DNA of 32,272 nucleotides from a virus (taxonomy: Duplodnaviria; Heunggongvirae; Uroviricota; Caudoviricetes), in IMG/VR virus record IMGVR_UViG_2778261667_000010, positions 1 through 32,272 of that record; one strand, 5' to 3'. The notes below the pieces were generated by a model. The model saw nothing but the letters and a program-made list of their open reading frames with translations. It made no database searches and was not told the origin of the DNA. Shown in pieces: positions 3,592 through 28,726 of this stretch (positions within the stretch are counted from its first letter, which is position 1; every line of letters starts with the position of its first letter). The position numbers and the translations under genes are program-made.

Positions 3592-6039
3592 TTAACCGTC
3601 ATGCATCATGCTGGCACGGGCGCGCGCACGTTTGTCCCGCTCGTATTTTTCGAGCGCATCCTGTAACTGGCGGTCGAGCTGTGTCCCCGGCGCAGTACCA
3701 CCCGTCAGGCTGATGTGATATTCGTTTTTACTCTGGTCTACATAAGAGCGGCCAGCCGGTGCCGTGACCGGCTGATAAGCCTGATAACCTGCATAAGAGC
3801 TGGTCGCCGGAATATAACCACCGCTGCCATACGTGGCGGCTTGAGTTCTGGCGGCGGTCTGGTCAAGTGTGTCTGACTCTTTGTTGATGACACCGAGTTT
3901 TTCCAGTACCCAGTCAATACCACTGCGCAGTTTGTTGAACGCATTAAGCGGCAGCATCAGCGCGTCAGCCAGTGCCTGCCCGAACATGACGCCCGTGTCA
4001 CGGCAACGGTTCAGGGTGTCCTGGGTGGCTTTGACCGGGGCAATCAGGTTTTTAAACCACTGCCACGCGGCCTGTAACTTTTCACCCAGCCAGTCAAACA
4101 CCGGCTTAAGTGGCGTGAACAGTTCCCCCACCGGCGCAAATGCCGCTTTCAGCCCTTCCACCACACCGCCAAAAAATGCGCTGACAGGCTCCCAGTATTT
4201 ACGGATAAGTAACGCCCCGGCGACAATGGCGGCCACCACGGCCACTACCGGCCAGCTAATCGCCCCGATGGCCGTCATAACGGCACTGCCAACCGTCGTG
4301 AAGATTGCCCCCATTGCGCCTGCTGCTGCGATAATGGCATTGATGCCAGTGATAACCGGCCAGGCTACAAGACCAATTGCACCGATGATGCCAATCAGCG
4401 CCAGCGCGCCACCGGCAATGATGCCAATGGTTGACGCCAGTGATTTGTTTTTCTGTATCCAGCCGTCGAGTTTTAACACATACTTTGTGGCCGTCTGTGT
4501 GAGCTTACGCAGTGCGCCTTCCTGCTGGTCAAACAGGTCTGTCCCTACCGCCTCATAAGCGGACTGAAACTCCTTAAAGTCACCGCCGAGGTTATCCTGC
4601 ATGATATTTACCAGCTCGGCGGTCTTCCCGTCTGAGGCTTTAAACGCAGCAGTCAGTTTGTCCAGCTTTCCGGTTGAGGCGGCAGTCATCAGCACGGCGG
4701 CGGCTGAGCTGGCCTCCTCCCCGAAAATAGTTTTCATGTATTCAGCCTGCTGGGCAGTACCGAGCCGGTTTTTCTCAAAACTGGCCTGCATTTCTTTCAG
4801 AATGGTAAATATTGGTCGGGTATTCCCCTTACTGTCTGAGGTTTTCACGCCAAGCTCTTTGAGTGCATCCCATGCTTTTCCCGTTGGTGCCTGCAGGCGA
4901 CTTAACACGGCACGGCTTCCCGTCCCCGCCATTGAGCCTGTGATTTTTGCATCATGCAGCGCCCCGACCATTGCGGCGGTTTCTTCAATGCTGACACCGG
5001 CATTTTTTGCCACAGGTGCGGCATAGGTCAGCGCATCGCTCATGCCGTCAAAATCGGCGGCGGTTTTGTTCATCGTCATGGAGAGAACATCCCCGATATG
5101 AGCGACCTTATCGTTTGAAAGCTGAAAGGCGGATTTCATCCCCATCAGCAGGGCGGCGTTTTCTTCCATCGTGCGGCGGTTCGCCAGCGCCATGTTCAGC
5201 GTGACCGGCGTTGCCGCCTGAATGGCATCAACATCCCCACCCGCTTTCGCGATGATTATCTGTGCACCGGCCGCATCATCCGCCGAGGCGGCGGTATTGT
5301 CGCCGAGCTGGCGCGCCTGTTTGCGTAGTGCGGTCATTTCGGCGGAGTCTTTTGCCACTCCGAGCACGGCCTGCAATTCTGAGTTTTTCTGCGCAAACTC
5401 ATAACCGGGCATCAGCAGCTTAACACCGGCCATCGTTCCCGCAGCAGCAATCCCCACACCGGCAGCGCCCACTGAGGCCATATTTCCGGCCAGCTCCTTT
5501 CCTGCCTGATAACGCTGTTTCACTGCGTTAAGTTTTGCCTGTTGCGCACTGACACGCGCCAGCGCGTCACGCTGCCGGTTAAGCTGTGCGGTGGTTTCAC
5601 TGATACGGTTTTTCAGCCCCTGCTCATCATGTGCAAGATTGCGGGTATTAATTCCCACAGCGGCCAGTTCCCGCTGCTGGCGTTTAACGGAATCCGTCAG
5701 GCGGTTATATTTCGCCTGTAAGTCCTCCGCCGCACGCTTTGCGGATTCCAGCACTTTCGCCTGAGCACGGGTCGGACGTTCAGTGTTTTTAAACTGTGTG
5801 GCAAGGGCTTCGGCCTCCTGCCGTGCCTTTTCAAGTGCATGACCAGTCACGGCGAGCTGTGCGCTGGTCTTGCGAAATCCCTCAATACGGGATGCCTGAC
5901 CGTTCAGCTCGCGCAGTGATTTTTGTGTTTCCCGGATATCCCCCGACAGCGACTTGCTCGCTGTGCGGATGGATTTAAACGGGCGGGATGCCTGGTCAAC
6001 AGCCCTGAGCAATACCTGTAATTTTACATTGTTACTCAT
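3592..6039 (-). CDS. T: tail tape measure protein gpT (815 aa)
   Basis: 815 aa, Ala/Gly-rich with hydrophobic central segment; position between E/E' and U. Confidence 0.9.
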   Translation of the reverse strand: MSNNVKLQVLLRAVDQASRPFKSIRTASKSLSGDIRETQKSLRELNGQASRIEGFRKTSAQLAVTGHALEKARQEAEALATQFKNTERPTRAQAKVLESAKRAAEDLQAKYNRLTDSVKRQQRELAAVGINTRNLAHDEQGLKNRISETTAQLNRQRDALARVSAQQAKLNAVKQRYQAGKELAGNMASVGAAGVGIAAAGTMAGVKLLMPGYEFAQKNSELQAVLGVAKDSAEMTALRKQARQLGDNTAASADDAAGAQIIIAKAGGDVDAIQAATPVTLNMALANRRTMEENAALLMGMKSAFQLSNDKVAHIGDVLSMTMNKTAADFDGMSDALTYAAPVAKNAGVSIEETAAMVGALHDAKITGSMAGTGSRAVLSRLQAPTGKAWDALKELGVKTSDSKGNTRPIFTILKEMQASFEKNRLGTAQQAEYMKTIFGEEASSAAAVLMTAASTGKLDKLTAAFKASDGKTAELVNIMQDNLGGDFKEFQSAYEAVGTDLFDQQEGALRKLTQTATKYVLKLDGWIQKNKSLASTIGIIAGGALALIGIIGAIGLVAWPVITGINAIIAAAGAMGAIFTTVGSAVMTAIGAISWPVVAVVAAIVAGALLIRKYWEPVSAFFGGVVEGLKAAFAPVGELFTPLKPVFDWLGEKLQAAWQWFKNLIAPVKATQDTLNRCRDTGVMFGQALADALMLPLNAFNKLRSGIDWVLEKLGVINKESDTLDQTAARTQAATYGSGGYIPATSSYAGYQAYQPVTAPAGRSYVDQSKNEYHISLTGGTAPGTQLDRQLQDALEKYERDKRARARASMMHDG

Positions 6040-6459
6040 TCGTGTTTCCGCTTCGCCGGAGCGCCTTTTCGCGCCATGTGATGAGTTCGGTCAGGCTCAT
6101 GGGATACAGTTCTGATGGCGGCCAGTGAAATATCACTGCCACATCCGCCATCAGGTCATCGACCGAGAGATTTTTCGGGAACGTCACTGCACCGAGTTCG
6201 GCGACAAAAAACCGACCACCTTACCGGCCAGCGCCACAAGGTCAGGCAGTTCCAGCGCGGCAACTTCCTGCTCGGTCAGCATCGGTGCCGTCATGCGCGG
6301 CAGCACCTTAATCAGTGCATCGACTTCGGAGTTCGCGACCGCAGCCAGACTGACACCGCGCAGCGTCCCGGCATTGGGCTTCATCAGCGTGACCTGTTCG
6401 ATGACCTGCTCACCACGCTTGACCGGATTGTCCAGGGTAATCACATTTTCTTTGTTCAT
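6032..6459 (-). CDS. E+E': gpE+E' chaperone made by programmed -1 ribosomal frameshift
   Basis: Slippery T TTT TTG at 6205-6211 (minus strand). Hand translation of the -1 frame from 6205 gives an open extension VAELGAVTFPKNLSVDDLMADVAVIFHWPP...NTNE ending at TAA 6034-6032, overlapping the T start. Confidence 0.8.
6184..6459 (-). CDS. E: tail assembly chaperone gpE (91 aa)
   Basis: 91-aa ORF upstream of T; ends ...GFLSPNSVQ and carries slippery heptamer TTTTTTG near its 3' end. Confidence 0.9.
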   Translation of the reverse strand: MNKENVITLDNPVKRGEQVIEQVTLMKPNAGTLRGVSLAAVANSEVDALIKVLPRMTAPMLTEQEVAALELPDLVALAGKVVGFLSPNSVQ

Positions 6460-6487
6460 GGTTTTCTCACTTCTGAATCAGGGTTAA

Positions 6488-6508
6488 CCGGTCAGCCTGG
6501 CTGACCGG
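6488..6508 (-). other. perfect 9-bp stem-loop (CCGGTCAGC-CTG-GCTGACCGG) in FII-E intergenic region
   Basis: Inverted repeat read directly; no U-tract follows on the transcribed strand, so more likely an mRNA structure than a full terminator. Confidence 0.4.
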
Positions 6509-6515
6509 ATGAAAA

Positions 6516-7034
6516 TCACAGGCCGATATTGCGGCGGTGTTGCTCCAGACGGTCGACACCGTTCACCTTCTCAATCATGTTGATGGTGTCGATTTCGACC
6601 AGCTCCTTACCGTCCATCGTCAGCCGGAAATAGGTGCAGACCACGGAGATTTTCGACTCGGTGTCTTCTCCCTGTTTACCCTCGCCGGTGTCGATTTCTT
6701 TCTGACGTCCACGCATGACCACTTCGACGGCCACCGTTTCGCCGGTATCGTCGCGCTGGTAAGAGCCTGCAAAACGAATCGGCACGGCATCCACACCGGT
6801 TGCGGCGTAAAGCTCCCAGATAACCGAATCCGGGAAGCCCCCGAGCGACCACTCCATTGACAGCGCATCGTCATCAAGGCCGAGGTCTACCGGTGCGCTG
6901 CCGTTCATCCCCGCACCGCGATAGTTTTCGAGCTTACGGGTCAGTTTTGGCAGCGTGACGGACTTTGCAACGCCCTGATAGCTGTAGCCGTTCAGAAAGA
7001 CGTTCATTAACTTGAGTTTGCGCGGCATTGCCAT
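6516..7034 (-). CDS. FII: tail tube protein gpFII (172 aa)
   Basis: Length and synteny match P2 FII; ATG at 7032-7034. Confidence 0.9.
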   Translation of the reverse strand: MAMPRKLKLMNVFLNGYSYQGVAKSVTLPKLTRKLENYRGAGMNGSAPVDLGLDDDALSMEWSLGGFPDSVIWELYAATGVDAVPIRFAGSYQRDDTGETVAVEVVMRGRQKEIDTGEGKQGEDTESKISVVCTYFRLTMDGKELVEIDTINMIEKVNGVDRLEQHRRNIGL

Positions 7035-17378: not shown

Positions 17379-18116
17379 TTAACTGGCTTTCTTTTTCGGG
17401 CGTCCACGTTTTGCCGGTGTCGCACTCCGGGTCTTACGCGGGGCGCGGGTGGCCGCTTTTGGCTGCGGCTCCGGTTTCAGCTCCCGCTCCAGTCGTTCAA
17501 TCTCTTTTTTGACGCCTGCCTGACAGTCGAGCTGTGTCGCACGTTGCAGGTGCGCCAGCGCACCTGCGGCATCACCAGCGTCACGCAGAAACAGACCGGT
17601 GATTTTGTGCAGCTTTGCGCGCACTTCATCAGGCATGTCAGCCGTGGCGGTCAGTTCAAGGGTCTCCGTCAGCAGGCGGGTATCCACAGACTCACCGGCA
17701 GCGTGAGCGCGCATGGCCGCGAGCGCCACCTCCTCGGTGAACATGTACGGCGGGGTGCGTCGGTGTTTACCCGGCATGGTCAGACCGTACTTCAGGGCAT
17801 AACGGGCAATCTCCAGCGCACCGGCAATATCGCCGGTATCCAGACGCCACAGCATGACCGTCATCAGAATGTCATCCTGTGCACCTTTGCCCTGGTCCAG
17901 CACGCCGTTCACCCACGGCAACCAGAACGGCAGCAGTTCGCGTTTTTTCGCGGCCTTCAGCTCTTTTGAATAAATCGCTTTCAGTGTGCGCTGGTCTGCG
18001 GCCAGCTTGACCAGCATCTGCTCATAGACAGTTGCATGTCGCAGCGGGGCGGCTTCCCGCTGCGCGGTCATCGCTGCCGAGACCCGCATCATGTGGCGCT
18101 GTGCGGGACTCGTCAT
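17379..18116 (-). CDS. M: terminase small/endonuclease subunit gpM (245 aa)
   Basis: Length and synteny match P2 M; basic C-terminal tail. Confidence 0.9.
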   Translation of the reverse strand: MTSPAQRHMMRVSAAMTAQREAAPLRHATVYEQMLVKLAADQRTLKAIYSKELKAAKKRELLPFWLPWVNGVLDQGKGAQDDILMTVMLWRLDTGDIAGALEIARYALKYGLTMPGKHRRTPPYMFTEEVALAAMRAHAAGESVDTRLLTETLELTATADMPDEVRAKLHKITGLFLRDAGDAAGALAHLQRATQLDCQAGVKKEIERLERELKPEPQPKAATRAPRKTRSATPAKRGRPKKKAS

Positions 18117-20106: not shown

Positions 20107-20279
20107 TGTCAGGAGTCCTGAATAGTGATTAGAGGAGTCACATGTCGGCATCAGTTTCCCGACGATGCGCATCCTCCGCCATCAGTCCCGGATGGCTTAT
20201 CACTGACACAACAGCACCTTAGCGAATCGCGGGGCGCGACTCAGTAGCCTTGCCGTGTATTCATCACGGCGAGGTATTC
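20107..20279. promoter_or_regulatory. divergent late promoter region between O (minus) and P (plus)
   Basis: 173-bp intergenic region between divergently transcribed capsid and terminase operons, as in P2; individual Ogr sites not resolved. Confidence 0.45.
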
Positions 20280-22052
20280 ATGACCATCACCACAGACACC
20301 ACTCTTTTACACGACCCGCGTCGTCAGGCGGCGCTGCTGTACTGGCAGGGGTTTTCCGTGCCGCAGATTGCCGCCATGTTGCAGATGAAACGCCCGACGG
20401 TGCAGAGCTGGAAACAGCGCGACGGCTGGGACAGCGTTGCCCCCATCAGCCGTGTCGAAATGAGCCTGGAAGCGCGGCTGACCCAGCTCATCATCAAACC
20501 GCAGAAAACCGGCGGTGACTTCAAGGAAATTGACCTGCTGGGACGCCAGATTGAACGACTGGCACGGGTAAACCGCTACAGCCAGACCGGCAACGAGGCA
20601 GACCTTAATCCGAACGTCGCTAACCGCAACAAAGGCGGGCGTCGCAAACCGAAAAAGAATTTTTTCAGTGACGAAGCCATCGAAAAGCTGGAGCAGATTT
20701 TCTTTGAGCAGTCTTTCGACTATCAGTTGCACTGGTATCGCGCCGGGCTTGAGCACCGCATCCGCGATATCCTGAAATCCCGCCAGATTGGCGCGACGTT
20801 TTATTTTTCCCGCGAGGCACTGCTGCGCGCCCTGAAAACCGGTCATAACCAGATTTTTCTGTCGGCCAGTAAAACGCAGGCGTATGTGTTCCGCGAATAC
20901 ATCATCGCCTTTGCCCGTCTGGTGGACGTTGACCTTACCGGTGACCCGATTGTCCTGGGCAATAACGGCGCAAAACTGATTTTTCTCGGCACCAACTCCA
21001 ACACCGCGCAGAGCCATAACGGCGACCTGTACGTCGATGAGATTTTCTGGATCCCGAATTTTCAGGTACTGCGTAAGGTGGCATCAGGTATGGCCTCACA
21101 GAGTCACCTGCGCTCGACCTATTTCTCCACCCCGTCCACGCTGGCGCACGACGCCTACCCGTTCTGGTCAGGTGAACTGTTCAACCGGGGACGTGCCAGC
21201 GCCGCCGAACGTGTGGAAATCGACGTCAGTCATAACGCCCTTGCCAGCGGGCTTCTCTGTGCGGACGGCCAGTGGCGGCAGATTGTCACCATTGAGGACG
21301 CCCTGAAAGGCGGCTGCACACTGTTCGACATTGAGCAGCTCAAACGTGAAAACAGCGCCGACGATTTTAAAAACCTGTTCATGTGTGAATTTGTTGACGA
21401 CAAGGCGTCGGTGTTCCCGTTCGAGGAGCTGCAACGCTGCATGGTCGACACGCTGGAAGAATGGGAAGACTATGCGCCGTTTGCCGCCAATCCGTTCGGC
21501 TCACGTCCGGTATGGATTGGTTACGACCCGTCACACCGTGGCGACAGCGCCGGATGCGTGGTGCTGGCACCGCCGGTGGTGGCCGGTGGCAAATTCAGAA
21601 TACTTGAGCGTCACCAGTGGAAAGGCATGGACTTTGCCACCCAGGCGGAATCCATCCGCAAACTCACCGAAAAATACAACGTCGAATACATCGGTATTGA
21701 TGCCACCGGCCTTGGTGTCGGCGTGTTCCAGCTCGTGCGCTCGTTCTATCCCGCCGCGCGCGATATCCGCTACACGCCGGAAATGAAAACCGCAATGGTG
21801 CTCAAGGCAAAAGACGTTATCCGCCGTGGCTGTCTGGAATATGACGTCAGCGCCACCGACATCACCAGCTCGTTTATGGCTATCCGCAAGACCATGACCA
21901 GCAGCGGACGCAGCGCCACCTATGAGGCCAGCCGCAGCGAGGAAGCCAGCCACGCCGACCTCGCCTGGGCGACCATGCACGCTCTGTTAAATGAGCCACT
22001 CACCGCCGGTATCAGCACCCCGCTGACATCCACCATTCTGGAGTTTTACTGA
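20280..22052 (+). CDS. P: terminase large (ATPase) subunit gpP (590 aa)
   Basis: ATG at 20280 preceded by GAGG; MTITTDTTLLHD...; the track ORF begins at an upstream TTG. Confidence 0.9.
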   Translation: MTITTDTTLLHDPRRQAALLYWQGFSVPQIAAMLQMKRPTVQSWKQRDGWDSVAPISRVEMSLEARLTQLIIKPQKTGGDFKEIDLLGRQIERLARVNRYSQTGNEADLNPNVANRNKGGRRKPKKNFFSDEAIEKLEQIFFEQSFDYQLHWYRAGLEHRIRDILKSRQIGATFYFSREALLRALKTGHNQIFLSASKTQAYVFREYIIAFARLVDVDLTGDPIVLGNNGAKLIFLGTNSNTAQSHNGDLYVDEIFWIPNFQVLRKVASGMASQSHLRSTYFSTPSTLAHDAYPFWSGELFNRGRASAAERVEIDVSHNALASGLLCADGQWRQIVTIEDALKGGCTLFDIEQLKRENSADDFKNLFMCEFVDDKASVFPFEELQRCMVDTLEEWEDYAPFAANPFGSRPVWIGYDPSHRGDSAGCVVLAPPVVAGGKFRILERHQWKGMDFATQAESIRKLTEKYNVEYIGIDATGLGVGVFQLVRSFYPAARDIRYTPEMKTAMVLKAKDVIRRGCLEYDVSATDITSSFMAIRKTMTSSGRSATYEASRSEEASHADLAWATMHALLNEPLTAGISTPLTSTILEFY

Positions 22053-23086
22053 TGAGCAAGAAAAAAGGGAAAACACCGCAACCTGCGGCAAAAACAATGA
22101 CCGCCAGCGCCCCGAAAATGGAGGCATTCACCTTTGGCGAGCCGGTGCCGGTACTCGACCGCCGTGACATTCTGGATTACGTCGAATGCATCAGTAACGG
22201 CAGATGGTATGAGCCGCCGGTCAGCTTTACCGGTCTGGCAAAAAGTCTGCGTGCTGCCGTGCATCACAGCTCACCGATTTACGTCAAACGTAATATTCTG
22301 GCTTCAACGTTTATCCCGCACCCGTGGCTTTCCCAGCAGGATTTCAGCCGCTTTGTGCTGGATTTTCTGGTGTTCGGTAATGCGTTTCTGGAAAAGCGTT
22401 ACAGCACCACCGGTAAGGTCATCAGACTGGAAACCTCACCGGCAAAATATACCCGCCGTGGCGTGGAGGAGGATGTTTACTGGTGGGTGCCGTCCTTCAA
22501 CGAACCGACAGCCTTCACGCCCGGTTCCGTGTTTCACCTGCTGGAGCCGGATATTAATCAGGAGCTGTACGGCCTGCCGGAATATCTCAGCGCCCTTAAC
22601 TCTGCCTGGCTGAATGAGTCGGCCACGCTGTTCCGCCGCAAGTATTACGAAAACGGCGCACATGCCGGATACATCATGTACGTTACCGATGCCGTGCAGG
22701 ATCGCAACGATATCGAAATGCTTCGCGAAAACATGGTGAAGTCGAAAGGCCGCAACAACTTTAAAAATCTGTTTCTCTATGCCCCACAAGGGAAAGCCGA
22801 CGGCATTAAAATTATCCCGCTCAGTGAAGTGGCGACGAAGGACGATTTTTTTAATATCAAAAAAGCCAGTGCCGCAGACCTGCTGGACGCCCACCGCATC
22901 CCCTTTCAGTTGATGGGCGGCAAGCCGGAGAACGTCGGGTCGCTGGGTGATATTGAGAAAGTGGCAAAGGTCTTTGTCCGCAATGAGCTTATCCCGTTAC
23001 AGGACAGGATCCGAGAGATAAACGGCTGGCTCGGTCAGGAGGTCATCCGCTTTAAAAACTACTCACTGGACACTGACAACGACTGA
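22052..23086 (+). CDS. Q: portal protein gpQ (344 aa)
   Basis: ATGA overlap with P stop; length and synteny match P2 Q. Confidence 0.9.
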   Translation: MSKKKGKTPQPAAKTMTASAPKMEAFTFGEPVPVLDRRDILDYVECISNGRWYEPPVSFTGLAKSLRAAVHHSSPIYVKRNILASTFIPHPWLSQQDFSRFVLDFLVFGNAFLEKRYSTTGKVIRLETSPAKYTRRGVEEDVYWWVPSFNEPTAFTPGSVFHLLEPDINQELYGLPEYLSALNSAWLNESATLFRRKYYENGAHAGYIMYVTDAVQDRNDIEMLRENMVKSKGRNNFKNLFLYAPQGKADGIKIIPLSEVATKDDFFNIKKASAADLLDAHRIPFQLMGGKPENVGSLGDIEKVAKVFVRNELIPLQDRIREINGWLGQEVIRFKNYSLDTDND

Positions 23087-23090
23087 ACAT

Positions 23091-23113
23091 CGCCGCCTGC
23101 GGGCGGCTTTTTT
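23091..23113 (+). terminator. intrinsic terminator after Q
   Basis: Stem GCCGCC/GGCGGC with loop TGCG, followed by TTTTTT (23108-23113). Confidence 0.75.
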
Positions 23114-23255
23114 ACATCCCGTCATCACGCCCTCACACGCTCACCACCGCACAAAACACCCCTTAGACACACCAACGCCCCGACGCACAATCTAAACGCC
23201 ATCACGACGCGCTCAGACGCTGAAAAAATAAAATCAGCACCACCGCCAGCGCGCA

Positions 23256-23274
23256 GTGCTTTCCCCGCCTCGCC
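23256..23274. other. cos: cos cohesive-end sequence (19 nt)
   Basis: GTGCTTTCCCCGCCTCGCC is the reverse complement of the recalled P2/P4 cohesive end GGCGAGGCGGGGAAAGCAC. Confidence 0.75.
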
Positions 23275-23368
23275 CGCCCGCTTCATGGGGCGGTTTTGAT
23301 GCAACCTCGTATTAAAGGGGACACCATAGCCCATCAAACCTCAGACTTCGCCCCTAGCTAACGTTTAT

Positions 23369-23398
23369 GAATGCAATGTAATGCAACTTAATGCAAGT
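23369..23398 (+). repeat. three 10-bp-phased direct repeats of (T/G)AATGCAA upstream of the cargo gene
   Basis: ATGCAA at 23371-23376, 23381-23386 and 23391-23396, exactly 10 bp apart, 60-90 bp upstream of the ATG at 23458. Confidence 0.7.
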
Positions 23399-23457
23399 TA
23401 TGGTAATGATAATTCTGCGTTAACAATTAAACTAATGTACCTGTAAGAGGATAAAAA

Positions 23458-25941
23458 ATGTCTGGTTTTTTCCTTGATTTAACCAAGCTTTCGCCCAGTG
23501 TAAATAGCGACACAGCGATTCCACCGCGAGATATATTTACAGCTCTACCGAGCAAAGACACCAAATTTCAATACCCTCGAGATGTGCAATCAGAGGTCTG
23601 GGAAAAATGGTATGAAGCAAGGAGAAGCCCAACCAATGTAATAAAAATGAATACCGGAAGCGGTAAAACTTCAGTTGGGTTAATCATTCTTAAAAGCTGT
23701 ATAAATGAAGGAGAAGGTCCCGCTGTATATGTTGTTCCTGACAACTATCTAGTTGAGCAAGTGGTTTTGGAGGCTAATCAACTTGGTATACCTGTAACTC
23801 AAGATGAGAGGTCCCCCAAATTTATTGCAGGTAAAGAAATTTTAGTTACAAATATATTCAAAGTGGTTAATGGACGTTCTGCATTTGGCGTTGGAGATGA
23901 TGGACAAAAAATACCAATAGGTTCTATAATAATTGACGATGCTCACGCTTGCCTTTCTTCAATTGAAGAACAATTCTCCATTAGCATTCAAAAAAATAAC
24001 CCTGCCTATGATAAATTATTCAGAATTTTTGAAAATTCACTAATGACACAAGCTGGTGCAAAAACACTAGAGATAAAATCCGGCGATAGAAATGCTTATG
24101 TGAGAGTTCCATTTTGGAAATGGCAAGAAAGCATAAATGATATAATGACAATCTTGTTAGAAAATAAAGACCATGATGACTTGAGTTTCAAATGGCCATT
24201 AATAAAAGACAATCTAATATTATCGAAATGCGTTGTAAGTGCTTCCAAAATAGAGATATCACCTCATTGCATACCAATCCAAATGATCCCAAGCCTATCA
24301 AACGCAAGAAGAAAAATATTCATGACAGCTACTCTTGTCGATGAATCCATTCTAGCGAGCCACTTCGGAATAACGGATGAATCACTCTCTAATCCGATAA
24401 CACCAAAAACAATTGGTGATATTGGTGATAGAATGATACTAATGCCTCAGGTTATAAACCCTAGTCTTTCTGATGTAGATATCAAAGCTATGTGCAAGGA
24501 GATATCCTCCAAACATAATGTTGTTGTAATTGTACCATCCGATTACAGAACTAGATTTTGGCAAGATGTTGCAGACAGAATATTAGATAAAAATACAATT
24601 TATCAAGGTGTACAAGAATTAAGGACACAACATGTTGGCTTAGTAGTCCTAGTTAATAGATATGATGGTATTGATTTACCAAATACCGCATGTCGTCTAT
24701 TAGTAATAGATGGACTTCCTGACGTTCGTAGACTAATAGATAAAGTCTCACAAAGCTTATTGCTTGGAAGCGAAAAAACCAAAGATGAAATTATCCAGAA
24801 AATTGAACAAGGAATGGGGCGAGGAGTGAGATCAAGCGACGACTTCTGCGGAGTGATCTTACTTGGCAAAGCATTAAATGGCGCTGTTTTCCTTGGCTCC
24901 TCCTTAGAAAGGTTTTCTCCAGCAACGAAAGCACAAATTCAACTTTCACAGCAATTGGTATCGATACTGCCGGATACAACTATTGATTCAATCAAAGGTG
25001 CTCTTGATTATTGTCTGTTACGCAATTCTGACTGGGTCTCAAAAAGCAAAGGTATATTGACTGGCTTAACATTGGAAAATAAGCAGATTGACCAGCATAC
25101 TATAAACAAAAGATTGGCATATGACTTCGCATCACGAAATATGTTTCAACAAGCCGCTTTAACTCTAAAAAATGATAGTAGTACAGCTGACAAAGTTTAT
25201 AAGGGTTATCTAAAAGAACATGCTGCGGAATATGTAAACTTATATGACAAATCTGAAGCTCAGATATTGCTTCAGTCTGCATCAAACGATAACTATCGGG
25301 TATTAAAACCACTAATCGGCGTAACATATAATAGACTTAATGGTGCGGCACTTGAACAGGCCAGGGAATGTAGCTCCTATCTCAGAAGTAATTTTGAATC
25401 GGCGAATCAAGTCGTTGTGCATACTAATTCAATAATAGAAAACCTTATTTTCTCCGAGGGCACATCGAATCCCTTCGAAGATGCTATCGAAAAAGTTGCA
25501 TATTTGATCGGTTTTCGTAGCCAACGGCCAGAAAATGATACAGGTAAAGGACCTGACAATTTATGGGCAATGGGAGAAAACAATTATCTAGTAATTGAAT
25601 GCAAAAATGGAGCAACCGCAGAAAGAATAAGTAAGCATGACTGCAATCAGTTAAATGGGTCGGGTGCATGGTTCAGAAACATGTATGATCAAACTGCTAC
25701 CGCCACACCTATAATGATACATCACTCTAACATGCCTGAATATGCCGCAACACTAAACGAAGGGTCTCGAATAATGACCATAAATGATCTTGAACGTTTT
25801 AAAGCATCTATCCTCAGTTTTATCACGGCCATTTGTACAAGTGATAAACGACACGATGAGATATTTATAAGAGAACAATTGATCACATGTAAATTACGTG
25901 CATCAGACATAGTTGAAACCTATACGCGAAACCCTCGTTAA
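23458..25941 (+). CDS. cargo protein (827 aa): SF2 helicase-like ATPase with C-terminal PD-(D/E)xK-like nuclease motif; candidate anti-phage defence protein
   Basis: ATG 23458 with RBS AGAGGA 7 nt upstream; visibly AT-rich codon usage unlike flanking phage genes. Motif I NTGSGKT (23653-23670), motif II DDAH (23935-23946), motif V-like YDGIDLP, motif VI QGMGRGVR (24808-24831); C-terminal GPD (D700, 25555-25557) ... IECK (E714/K716, 25597-25605). Confidence 0.85.
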   Translation: MSGFFLDLTKLSPSVNSDTAIPPRDIFTALPSKDTKFQYPRDVQSEVWEKWYEARRSPTNVIKMNTGSGKTSVGLIILKSCINEGEGPAVYVVPDNYLVEQVVLEANQLGIPVTQDERSPKFIAGKEILVTNIFKVVNGRSAFGVGDDGQKIPIGSIIIDDAHACLSSIEEQFSISIQKNNPAYDKLFRIFENSLMTQAGAKTLEIKSGDRNAYVRVPFWKWQESINDIMTILLENKDHDDLSFKWPLIKDNLILSKCVVSASKIEISPHCIPIQMIPSLSNARRKIFMTATLVDESILASHFGITDESLSNPITPKTIGDIGDRMILMPQVINPSLSDVDIKAMCKEISSKHNVVVIVPSDYRTRFWQDVADRILDKNTIYQGVQELRTQHVGLVVLVNRYDGIDLPNTACRLLVIDGLPDVRRLIDKVSQSLLLGSEKTKDEIIQKIEQGMGRGVRSSDDFCGVILLGKALNGAVFLGSSLERFSPATKAQIQLSQQLVSILPDTTIDSIKGALDYCLLRNSDWVSKSKGILTGLTLENKQIDQHTINKRLAYDFASRNMFQQAALTLKNDSSTADKVYKGYLKEHAAEYVNLYDKSEAQILLQSASNDNYRVLKPLIGVTYNRLNGAALEQARECSSYLRSNFESANQVVVHTNSIIENLIFSEGTSNPFEDAIEKVAYLIGFRSQRPENDTGKGPDNLWAMGENNYLVIECKNGATAERISKHDCNQLNGSGAWFRNMYDQTATATPIMIHHSNMPEYAATLNEGSRIMTINDLERFKASILSFITAICTSDKRHDEIFIREQLITCKLRASDIVETYTRNPR

Positions 25942-26181: not shown

Positions 26182-28461
26182 TTACTCTGAATAACCAGAA
26201 AACCCACTCCACTCATCTACACTAGGATATGAAAATTGCTTTTCATTGTAATTGACGATCGCACCGCGTACTAACGCCTCAAGCTCCCATCGCTGCGGCC
26301 TGATACCGTTTTGAGCAAGGTCAACACGGATACGGGTGATTTGCAATCGTTCAGACCGGGTCAGTCTGGCCGATGGTGCAATTTCATGTGGTTTTAACGG
26401 GCTTCCGTTTCTTTGCTGACGACTTGGCGTTCTCCGACCGTGTTTTAATGCACCCCTGAGCGCCCTCACTACCTCCGGGTCATTCCATTCGATAACACCG
26501 TCATCAACCAGATTTAGCACTGCTGCGGCGTGCTCAGAAGGTGTGGGAGCCGGTAACGAAGTATCACCACCGGTGAGCTTTCCACAGTTATTGACAGGAC
26601 TCCGAGGCGCGGCGATGCCGCTTTTTAAAGTCAAAGGCTCAACGACCGGAACTTTCGGCACAATGCGCCAGTCCGTCGTTCTGGTGATATGAATATGACG
26701 CGCGCCGAGATGCGGCGCGTAAATGCCGACCACTCTCTCGACTTCTTCCTCGTACTCGTTAACTTCATCCGACGGACTACGGGCAACCCTGACAGTCTGA
26801 CAATCGCGCGGAACATTTGCCCCACCCTGCGCGCTGATATACAACGCAAAATCACCACTGTCTGCGGCAGCGCGTGCAGCCTCGACGCGTTCGTCAAACT
26901 CATCAGCAATGCTGACGCCGCGAGGCAATTTGCGTAGTTCACGGTAAGCCCCCATTGTCGGCAGGCCAACCGTTTTAAATTGCGGAATGCGCCACGTTGA
27001 CGCCCATGCGGTAACAGCCGCGGCAGTGTCTTTCAGCGGCCTGCCGGTATCGTTATCGAGCTGACCATCCAGTGCATAGCCGTCGATATTTTTCGAAATG
27101 TATTTCGCGATATATCCCGCAGCACCGCCCCGGTTAAGGTGTTTTGCCTGAAAACGGTTTCGCGCGGCTCCTCTTTCGTCGCCATCCTCTTTGAGCGCAT
27201 AGCGACGCATGATTTCGATAATCTGGTTACGCTGGCGTGGATTACAAAAAAGCATCATATGCCAGTGCGGCGTTCCGTCGTGGTGTGGCTCGACGACTCG
27301 CAAACCGTAGACCTGTAAATCATTATCCTTGAATGCCGTGCGCATCAGGCTCCAGATACGGCAGAGATAACGCTGCGCATCCTTTGGATTAAATGCCTCA
27401 TCATTCCAGCCGTGATTAAGCTGGACGGTTTTATTTTCGCCTTTTCCAACCTGACGTGTCGGGTGATACTTTGACGGCGCGGTAAGCGTGATAAACATCC
27501 CCACATCACCCTCTGAGGCGGCGTAACGCTCAATACCGGCAATGGTGTTCATCAGCTCCATCCGGCGAATTTCAGGATTAGAAATACTGCCCATCACCTT
27601 ACTGATAAGGTCGATGCGCTCGCCGGTTTCCCTGTTTTCAAGGTCACACGATTTAAGAAATTCCAGATTTGCCTGGCGGCGCGCACGCACATCACGAATG
27701 GCATGTTTACTGGCATAAGGAGAACAGTCTTTATTCACCTCCCCGACAGCAATCAGTAACGCCTCATGCCAGCGCATACGCTGGCCTTTAAGCTGATGAG
27801 TCCACCACTCATCGTTAAACAGACGGGCAATGGCAGAATATGCCTGCCTCGTGGTCATCTGTCCTTTACGGTATTTTTTCCAGTAGAGAGGGGAAATATT
27901 GAAAGCACGTGCAGCGCCAGCAACATGACCATAGAGGTGAGCCTGCGCCTCATCCGTAAACAGCGATTCTTTCTCGCCATGCGCATCCACCCAGGCATCG
28001 CAGAGTTCCTCATACATCATGAAAAGCTGTGATGAGATACGGGCGGCAAACTTTTTCAGCTCCTTGTCATTCATCCCCGGCAGGCGCGCATACTGGTCGC
28101 GCTCTGCCAGAAACAGCAACGACGCGTCGGTGTTCATTTCATGGCGCTGATTCACGCGCTCAATGCGCGGCCATAAACGACGCTGAAAAGTGGATGTGAG
28201 GAAATAAAACCCGTGCACCGGGCTTTTATTGCGCCGGATGTAGTCATAGCGTGAAGTAAACAGCGAGCGCAAAAAGTAAGGCAGGCGGTTAATCGTGGAT
28301 AAAACACCTTGCACCTGACGCATCTCGTCACGTGTAAGGGGTCTTTCGTGCCCGACAGCCTCGCGTGGCGCGTTCCATGCATAAGCACCGGTAAACGCCT
28401 TACCGGTGCCTGCGGCAAATGCTGACGGAGGGACAAAACGCCCGGAGGCTTTAACGGCCAT
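26182..28461 (-). CDS. A: replication initiation protein gpA (rolling-circle nickase, about 759 aa)
   Basis: Near-identical to recalled P2 gpA (MAVKASGRFVPPSAF...); ATG at 28459-28461. The track start at 28503 is a TTG extension. Confidence 0.9.
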   Translation of the reverse strand: MAVKASGRFVPPSAFAAGTGKAFTGAYAWNAPREAVGHERPLTRDEMRQVQGVLSTINRLPYFLRSLFTSRYDYIRRNKSPVHGFYFLTSTFQRRLWPRIERVNQRHEMNTDASLLFLAERDQYARLPGMNDKELKKFAARISSQLFMMYEELCDAWVDAHGEKESLFTDEAQAHLYGHVAGAARAFNISPLYWKKYRKGQMTTRQAYSAIARLFNDEWWTHQLKGQRMRWHEALLIAVGEVNKDCSPYASKHAIRDVRARRQANLEFLKSCDLENRETGERIDLISKVMGSISNPEIRRMELMNTIAGIERYAASEGDVGMFITLTAPSKYHPTRQVGKGENKTVQLNHGWNDEAFNPKDAQRYLCRIWSLMRTAFKDNDLQVYGLRVVEPHHDGTPHWHMMLFCNPRQRNQIIEIMRRYALKEDGDERGAARNRFQAKHLNRGGAAGYIAKYISKNIDGYALDGQLDNDTGRPLKDTAAAVTAWASTWRIPQFKTVGLPTMGAYRELRKLPRGVSIADEFDERVEAARAAADSGDFALYISAQGGANVPRDCQTVRVARSPSDEVNEYEEEVERVVGIYAPHLGARHIHITRTTDWRIVPKVPVVEPLTLKSGIAAPRSPVNNCGKLTGGDTSLPAPTPSEHAAAVLNLVDDGVIEWNDPEVVRALRGALKHGRRTPSRQQRNGSPLKPHEIAPSARLTRSERLQITRIRVDLAQNGIRPQRWELEALVRGAIVNYNEKQFSYPSVDEWSGFSGYSE

Positions 28462-28726
28462 ATGAGCCAAAAGCCTCAGAACAACGCTTGCTGAGTTGCT
28501 CAACCTGCGCGTTTAAATCAGCAAAAGACTTTGCGCTTCCGGTCAGAATATCGTGATGCATCAGGCCGGAAACGAGCTGGCTTAATTTCGGGTAATAACC
28601 AACCACCGCCAGCCATTCCTGACCGACATTTTTACCGCTTTCCGCTCTCTTTTTCTCGTGGAGAATAAACTGAAAGCTGTCACTGGTAACGACATAACGT
28701 TCGCCAATTTCAATACGAATACTCAT
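28451..28726 (-). CDS. small early-operon protein (91 aa), orf83-like
   Basis: ATG at 28724-28726, ATGA overlap with upstream ORF; position immediately upstream of A. Confidence 0.7.
   Translation of the reverse strand: MSIRIEIGERYVVTSDSFQFILHEKKRAESGKNVGQEWLAVVGYYPKLSQLVSGLMHHDILTGSAKSFADLNAQVEQLSKRCSEAFGSYGR

Follow-up and report, generated by a model that had tools for sequence, protein, structure and literature searches.

A Phased ATGCA Array Locked in Position to cos in P2-Like Phages: a Proposed Terminase Recognition Subsite

Introduction

Does a short repeated sequence lying between the cohesive end of a phage and its cargo gene belong to the cargo or to cos? The question is raised by the DNA analysed here (the window), a viral record of 32,272 nucleotides (nt) from IMG/VR (IMGVR_UViG_2778261667_000010), which is a P2-like prophage with the exact 19-nt cohesive-end sequence of P2. 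At positions 23369-23398 the window reads GAATGCAATG TAATGCAACT TAATGCAAGT, in which AATGCAA starts at 23370, 23380 and 23390 with a spacing of exactly 10 bp. The cargo gene, a helicase, begins downstream with the ATG at 23458. An initial annotation of this DNA left two readings for the repeats, an operator or activator array controlling the cargo gene, or a portion of the cos-flanking region that terminase recognises. As shown below, the analysis favours the second reading and does not support the first as a dedicated primary function. The array is conserved, fixed in position and independent of the cargo. From the comparison of cos flanks it is probably a position-locked terminase recognition or assembly subsite, similar in kind to cosB of phage lambda.

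Offsets (+n) are counted from the end of the 19-nt cohesive-end sequence, position 23274. This sequence is the same as that of the P2 right end, annotated as cosR in NC_001895.

The Phased Array in the Window

The first AATGCAA starts 96 nt past the end of the cohesive-end sequence and its ATGCA core 97 nt past it, while the array as a whole occupies the stretch from 62 to 88 nt upstream of the cargo ATG. The initial annotation had described three phased copies located 60-90 bp before the cargo start and about 100 bp from the cohesive end. These distances agree with the measured ones, the setting of cos plus a cargo gene is correct, and the copies are borne out by direct reading and by shuffling of the sequence. 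When up to two mismatches were allowed, the pattern AATGCAA-N3-AATGCAA-N3-AATGCAA had a single match in the window, while 100 dinucleotide-preserving shuffles gave none; TRF describes the array as a repeat of period 10 with 2.7 copies. Since the lone heptamer is not enriched in the window (5 copies versus 8.75 expected), the unusual feature is the phasing. No second phased pair of the form ATGCA-N5-ATGCA occurs anywhere in the 32-kb window.

Two further observations concern the motif and its copy number. The pentamer ATGCA is under-represented throughout the window on both strands, with 74 occurrences versus 103 ± 11 in shuffles (99 of 100 shuffles had at least 74), and this scarcity might mean that spurious terminase sites, or a restriction site, are avoided. 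A viral contig otherwise identical to the window at 23370-23396 (L091:2924-2959) holds four copies, the additional unit being AATGCAACTT, which indicates that the copy number of the array alters by slippage. A length change of 10 bp was seen in none of the 70 copies of the array in E. coli.

Conservation of the Array in P2- and P4-Type cos Flanks

About 120 loci were fetched through the cos core and anchored on the cohesive end, giving 103 distinct flanks. Exact ATGCA motifs start at +21 to +25 in 99 of them, at +96 to +100 in 91, at +106 to +110 in 84 and at +116 to +120 in 74, and any other 5-nt bin is occupied in 0 to 6 flanks. The distance to the cohesive end is nearly invariant, the first array copy being located at +97 in 76 flanks, at +96 in 12 and at +98 in 7. 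When the motif was relaxed to N[TC]GC[AG], three copies were found in 76 of 104 flanks and two in another 26, so that 102 keep at least two and in none is the number zero; control windows moved by -45, +40, +80 or +120 nt never reached three copies in these 104 flanks. The comparison with phages carrying other cargo, which the initial annotation had proposed, thus places the array at +97, +107 and +117 to +120 in about 90% of the 103 flanks, next to unrelated neighbours.

The neighbours are diverse in identity and in direction. The portal gene lies upstream in 73 of the 103 flanks, and only four of these 73 have the helicase. In 49 flanks the nearest long open reading frame points towards cos and in 29 it points away, and both groups have the array. 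P4-like flanks, with psu downstream, number 14, and all of them score three copies out of three. The array ranges over phages of Escherichia, Salmonella, Yersinia, Klebsiella, Rouxiella and Ralstonia and over P4 satellites (offsets for reference phages are given in Table 1), and the copy in the window is an ordinary member of this family-wide cos-flank array. At greater distance, the right end of phiCTX (L324) shows CTGC(A/G) at about +25, +34, +95 and +105, and in the right end of HP1 (L326) a motif of its own, TTTCCGTG, recurs at about +8, +39 and +102. A layout with a near and a far motif may therefore be general in Peduoviridae, with motifs that are lineage-specific.

The information content of the aligned flanks delimits the elements of this region. 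It is 1.4-1.9 bits from -30 to +30 and 0.84 bits for +31 to +40, is 0.16-0.55 bits in the spacer, forms an island of 0.6-0.8 bits at +95 to +113, and amounts to about 0.1 bit past +130. In the core, from +1 to +36, the window is 72-83% identical to P2, P4 and 186, and it contains the cos-proximal ATGCA (+25) at 23299-23303. P4-type matches found by BLAST in E. coli genomes, with 90-98% identity, are limited to this core (Table 1). The spacer of about 60 nt conserves its length; its ungapped identity among the window, P2 and P4 is 18-32%, and both the spacer and the sequence past +130 are unrelated among flanks. Directly after the cohesive-end sequence, at 23274-23293, there is a GC hairpin followed by TTTT, terminator-like for transcription arriving from the portal side. 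A GC-rich inverted repeat (CGCGCCAG..CTGGCG) is located in the middle of the spacer, at +51 to +66, in 186, PSP3, P4 and many IMG/VR loci (e.g., L246 and L244), and it is found neither in the window nor in P2.

Simple homology searches give a different picture. BLAST of positions 23100-23470 yielded 109 matching phage records and 2168 matching E. coli records, and nearly all the matches end at 23303; those running past this position come from only 70 genomes, every one with the helicase. The E. coli copies of the locus are all at least 99% identical and are uninformative on conservation. From the break at 23303 it was first concluded that the array travels with the cargo, a conclusion that was rejected once the flanks were anchored on cos. 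BLAST is blind to the array because an island of about 30 nt sits behind an unrelated 60-nt spacer. The correction came from a P2-like phage (L092) that has the array 97 nt from cos, together with a different two-gene cargo converging on cos; here the array lies 44 nt beyond the stop codon of the converging gene. This phage and the four-copy contig were found by scanning viral contigs for the pattern ATGCAA-N4-ATGCAA-N4-ATGCAA, most other matches being unrelated tandem repeats. In several unrelated viral contigs (L119:8836-8900, L108, L117, L128 and L182), three or four phased ATGCAAA(T/A)AA units stand right before near-consensus TTGAC(T/A)...TATAAT promoters. These look like phased A-tracts or UP-element-like arrays and have no relation to P2 cos. 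As a lesson of method, a break in BLAST homology does not make a 30-nt motif located past it specific to the cargo.

The Same Helicase in Different Contexts

Homologues of the helicase allow the array to be separated from the gene. Five are located in a P2 context, those of the window, L081, L082, L332 and the Rouxiella phage L335, and in all five, counted from cos, the copies of the array are at +96/97, +106/107 and +116/117. The helicase ATG lies at +184 in the window and at +181, +182, +190 and +327, respectively, in the other four. As the distance to cos is fixed while the ATG ranges from +181 to +327, the array tracks cos and not the cargo. The two closest of these homologues, both beside cos (L081, 90% identical, and L082, 82%), keep the three ATGCAA, and all the substitutions that distinguish them and the window in the array stretch fall outside the ATGCAA hexamers.

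Outside the P2 context the array is not found. In the 200 nt upstream of four homologues of 77-81% identity, whose contexts are conjugative, integrase-island, P4-primase-like and lambdoid, ATGCA is absent, and the phased ATGCAA copies are not kept in the homologues of a conjugative element and a Pectobacterium island. An array that stands beside some 100 other neighbours, and that is absent before the same helicase in four other contexts, does not behave as the cargo operator that the initial annotation had envisaged as one of its two options.

In the Rouxiella phage GTGCA stands at the cos-proximal site and also in the first copy of the array. This shared variant is a single hint that one protein may read both the cos-proximal site and the array.

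Alternative Readings

Three other explanations were considered. According to the first, the array would be an element of the phage DNA with no relation to terminase: a bending site for a host factor, a barrier against transcription reading through into cos, or a homology anchor for the exchange of cassettes. Its location is in keeping with such roles, since the variable cargo region of P2-like phages has its inner limit at the array; Rousset et al. have suggested, as a speculation, that cargo is exchanged through recombination close to cos (PMC9122126), and many flanks have a terminator-like hairpin just past the array (t95b in 186). However, a stretch of about 30 nt is too short for an efficient homology anchor, and in P4, with cos to one side of it and the 3' end of psu to the other, the array is placed opposite the P4 hotspot. 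Moreover, a distance to the nick site kept within ±1 nt, and the sharing of the motif with the +25 site, speak for a protein complex spanning cos. We consider this explanation rather unlikely.

The second explanation is regulation of the cargo: a transcription factor of the host or the phage would bind the array, which would serve the helicase alone as an operator, an activator site or a core promoter element. Besides the closeness of the array to the ATG, in AT-rich DNA, and the confinement of substitutions to positions outside the hexamers, it draws on the promoter region of P2 old-tin. The mRNA starts annotated for P2 old-tin, at 33424 (+151) and 33426 (+149), are located about 30 nt beyond the array. 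On this ground a TTGAAT hexamer at +115 to +120 is taken as the -35 element; it was read by eye, is not annotated, and overlaps the third copy. The gene start is at +184 in the window versus about +195 for P2 old. By analogy with P2 old, the helicase transcript would be expected to start near 23416-23425. Downstream of the array a TGnTAAT is kept in L081, L082 and L083, one helicase relative being outside a phage. A sigma-70 consensus scan gave no match between 23300 and 23460; inspection by eye suggests a weak ATGCAA-N17-TAATGA preceded by TG (Table 1).

Against a dedicated regulatory role stand the unrelated neighbours, which include genes converging on cos and P4 psu, the lack of the array before the same gene in the four non-P2 contexts, and the distance kept to cos instead of to the ATG. 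In addition, the island encodes no regulator, and the phased motif occurs nowhere else in the prophage. The P2 old-tin promoter region resembles that of the window in its position relative to cos, but it is tied to a forward-reading cargo, whereas 186, P4 and many others keep the array beside a converging gene or a terminator. Known regulator boxes were compared by eye: the CpxR boxes GTAAA-N5-GTAAA, the PmrA boxes CTTAAT-N5-CTTAAT and OmpR/PhoB-type boxes, as well as the Cox boxes and the Ogr site of P2, match neither the motif nor the 10-bp period. Readings based on regulator boxes are unnecessary, since the conservation of the array is locked to cos. Cargo regulation is thus improbable as the function of the array and remains plausible only as a secondary, overlapping use. 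Where the cargo reads forward, as do the helicase and P2 old, its promoter probably abuts or overlaps the array in this secondary manner, to judge from the P2 case.

Finally, a tandem repeat made by chance or slippage and lacking a function is extremely improbable, for although the array is formally a 10-bp tandem repeat, slippage is seen in the four-copy contig and repeats of the phased ATGCAA type often occur in unrelated viral contigs, the shuffles do not reproduce it, and the recurrence of the same motif at the same three cos offsets across genera and P4 satellites, between unrelated flanks, effectively refutes it.

The Array as a Proposed Terminase Recognition Subsite

Taking into account that: (i) the distance of the array to the nick site is locked to ±1 nt; (ii) its motif is shared with the +25 site, and (iii) P4 satellites, which rely on the P2 terminase and are reported to share only the cos core with P2, copy the array, we propose that the array is a terminase recognition or assembly subsite. 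In the model, P2 terminase subunits would bind cooperatively to the phased copies, all on a single helical face, and also to the ATGCA at +25 beside the nick. The candidate readers would be the N-terminal helix-turn-helix of gpP, the small subunit gpM with its AT-hook-like tail, or both. The 60-nt spacer, fixed in length and free in sequence, would set the geometry for nicking and for the initiation of packaging. Pfam assigns this helix-turn-helix to the N terminus of gpP, so that the obvious sequence-reading domain of P2-type terminases is located on the large subunit. No sequence relatives of gpM or gpP were found in the PDB.

In phage lambda, cosB contains the R sites, bound by gpNu1, and the IHF site I1 beside cosN, and it is thought to anchor terminase for nicking and for the start of packaging. 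The P2 array is similar in that short repeated sites lie on one side of the nick, within about 50-150 bp, separate from the nicked sequence. It differs in consisting of 5-7-nt ATGCA(A) motifs in direct, helically phased copies, with one copy placed by the nick and a 60-nt spacer of fixed length. The terminases would differ too, as P2 gpM is predicted to be TPR-like and not winged-helix, and the helix-turn-helix is on the P2 large subunit. The P2 terminase, moreover, acts on circular monomers. The motif ATGCA(A) is presumably unlike the lambda R sequences, and the likeness is one of mechanism, not of family membership. Sites away from the cut are also used by pac phages: in SPP1 and SF6 the phased boxes for the small terminase, pacL and pacR, are placed at a distance and the intervening DNA is looped or wrapped (PMC7617512). 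For HK97, the small-terminase site lies within cos (PMC10370121, PMC11331095). Compared with P2, SPP1/SF6 and HK97 are of other phage families, with other motifs and other terminase folds.

The proposal also bears on published work with P2/P4 cosmids, in which transduction was 0.035 with longer cos flanks versus 1.7e-5 with short ones, a difference of about 2000-fold (PMC9594776). This effect of flank length fits a terminase subsite beyond the core. The conserved P2/P4 packaging signal is otherwise given as a 55-bp core, credited to Ziermann and Calendar 1990 (PMC9122126, PMC9594776, PMC3931495, PMC5694545). Both elements belong to the same locus and the same phages, but the core holds the cohesive ends and the ATGCA at +25, while the array lies outside it, at +93 to +125. 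In the open-access texts consulted on P2/P4 cos the 55-bp core is the only element described, although the minimal-cos mapping of 1990 may already include it.

Several points weigh against the assignment to terminase. The third copy is the least conserved, and 13 distinct flanks keep at most one exact ATGCA, with variant motifs at the same positions. The structure of gpM is modelled well, and its predicted TPR-like fold has no recognisable DNA-reading domain save the AT-hook-like tail. Given the literature on the 55-bp core, the array may be dispensable or merely stimulatory. Roles like that of cosB, in initiation, and of cosQ, in termination, both fit it, and the case for terminase binding and a role in packaging is a comparative one.

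A broader view can be put forward tentatively. The P2-type packaging signal would be bipartite, composed of the core, a spacer of fixed length and the phased array, and would extend to about +125. The array would then be a previously undescribed second, cosB-like subsite, read by an unusual terminase with a helix-turn-helix in the large subunit and a TPR-like small subunit with an AT-hook. This extended view is possible, though we hold it with a good deal less assurance than the proposal of a terminase subsite itself.

Genomic Context of the Window

The cos site of the window is placed between the portal gene Q and a variable region bounded by gene A, as in the P2 family (Peduoviridae), and the GC content drops from about 0.55 to 0.38 past cos. 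The region is the defence hotspot that Rousset et al. described next to cos in P2-like phages (PMC9122126). The features of the window are collected in Table 1, together with the ATGCA offsets of reference phages. The true start of gpP is probably the ATG at 20280.

Table 1. Coordinates of features in the window and offsets of ATGCA from the cohesive end in reference phages.
Feature	Position	Strand	Remarks
Triple AATGCAA array	23370..23396	+	ATGCA at +97, +107, +117 from cohesive end; proposed terminase recognition subsite
19-nt cohesive-end sequence (cos nick region), GTGCTTTCCCCGCCTCGCC	23256..23274	+	Reverse complement of P2 GGCGAGGCGGGGAAAGCAC
Conserved cos core ("55-bp core" common to P4)	23247..23303		From P4-type matches; includes hairpin and cos-proximal ATGCA
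Variable spacer, cos core to array	23311..23366		Conserved length of about 60 nt; from information content
Putative helicase promoter region	23381..23425	+	Weak; possible -35 ATGCAA 23381-23386, possible extended -10 TGgTAATGA 23401-23409
Cargo: 827-aa SF2 helicase, PADLOC candidate defence protein PDC-S28	23458..25941	+
Large terminase gpP	20250..22052	+	Pfam Terminase_5/HTH_23 residues 22-79, Terminase_6N, Terminase_6C
Portal protein gpQ	22052..23086	+	Pfam Phage_portal; ends 170 nt before cos
Terminator-like hairpin after portal gpQ	23092-23107		Hairpin scan
Small terminase gpM	17379..18116	-	Predicted all-helical TPR-like solenoid; basic C-terminal tail with AT-hook-like KRGRPKKK
Replication protein gpA	26182..28503	-	Pfam Phage_GPA, E=4e-124; far boundary of cos-proximal cargo hotspot
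P2			ATGCA at +25, +97, +107, +119
P4			ATGCA at +25, +97, +107, +120
186			ATGCA at +25, +97, +107, +120
PSP3			ATGCA at +97, +107, +116
Ralstonia phage RSA1			ATGCA at +25, +96, +106, +124

The cargo is a single-gene island. The helicase is preceded by a ribosome-binding site, AAGAGGA, at 23445-23451, and matches the PADLOC model PDC-S28 over its full length (E=0, 1055.7 bits; residues 6-825 versus model positions 2-826 of 831). It contains the Pfam domains ResIII/DEAD/Helicase_C_2 and bears the RefSeq name DEAD/DEAH box helicase. The PDC-S28 helicase is spread across mobile elements, among them P2-like phages, a Tra-type conjugative element, an integrase island, a P4-alpha-primase-like element and a lambdoid prophage (including L083, L084, L329 and L333). 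Relatives at 40-56% identity (L001-L080) come from cyanobacteria, Firmicutes and others. A scan of genome contigs with the helicase alone found nothing; an alignment-based scan of genome contigs gave only relatives of at most 56% identity, too distant for upstream comparison, and was not used.

The island varies among its carriers. In L081, at 5548-6631, two extra genes, one with a SocA_Panacea domain and one with DUF2975, are located between the helicase and gpA, so that the hotspot cassette varies even with the same helicase. In E. coli 4/2-1 (L328, NZ_CP023834) an IS21-family element, ISEc12 (istA/istB), is inserted between the array and the gene, about 21 nt before the helicase ATG and near window position 23437. 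Such an insertion is expected to separate the helicase from the sequence upstream of it and to make the prophage larger. The alignment of E. coli 219 (H140) breaks in the same way.

Significance

The fixed location of the array puts the border between the phage backbone and the exchangeable defence cassette at about +125 from cos, and not at +36. This boundary is relevant when systems of the hotspot are annotated, or cloned with their native promoters. P4 satellites would have in common with their helper a longer packaging signal than the quoted 55 bp, and for P2/P4 transduction vectors with longer flanks the array is a concrete candidate reason for better packaging. It also provides defined sites on which to study a type of terminase without a solved structure. 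If the bipartite signal proposed above is correct, the P2 defence hotspot would have its real inner boundary at the array, which any satellite would have to copy in order to be packaged.
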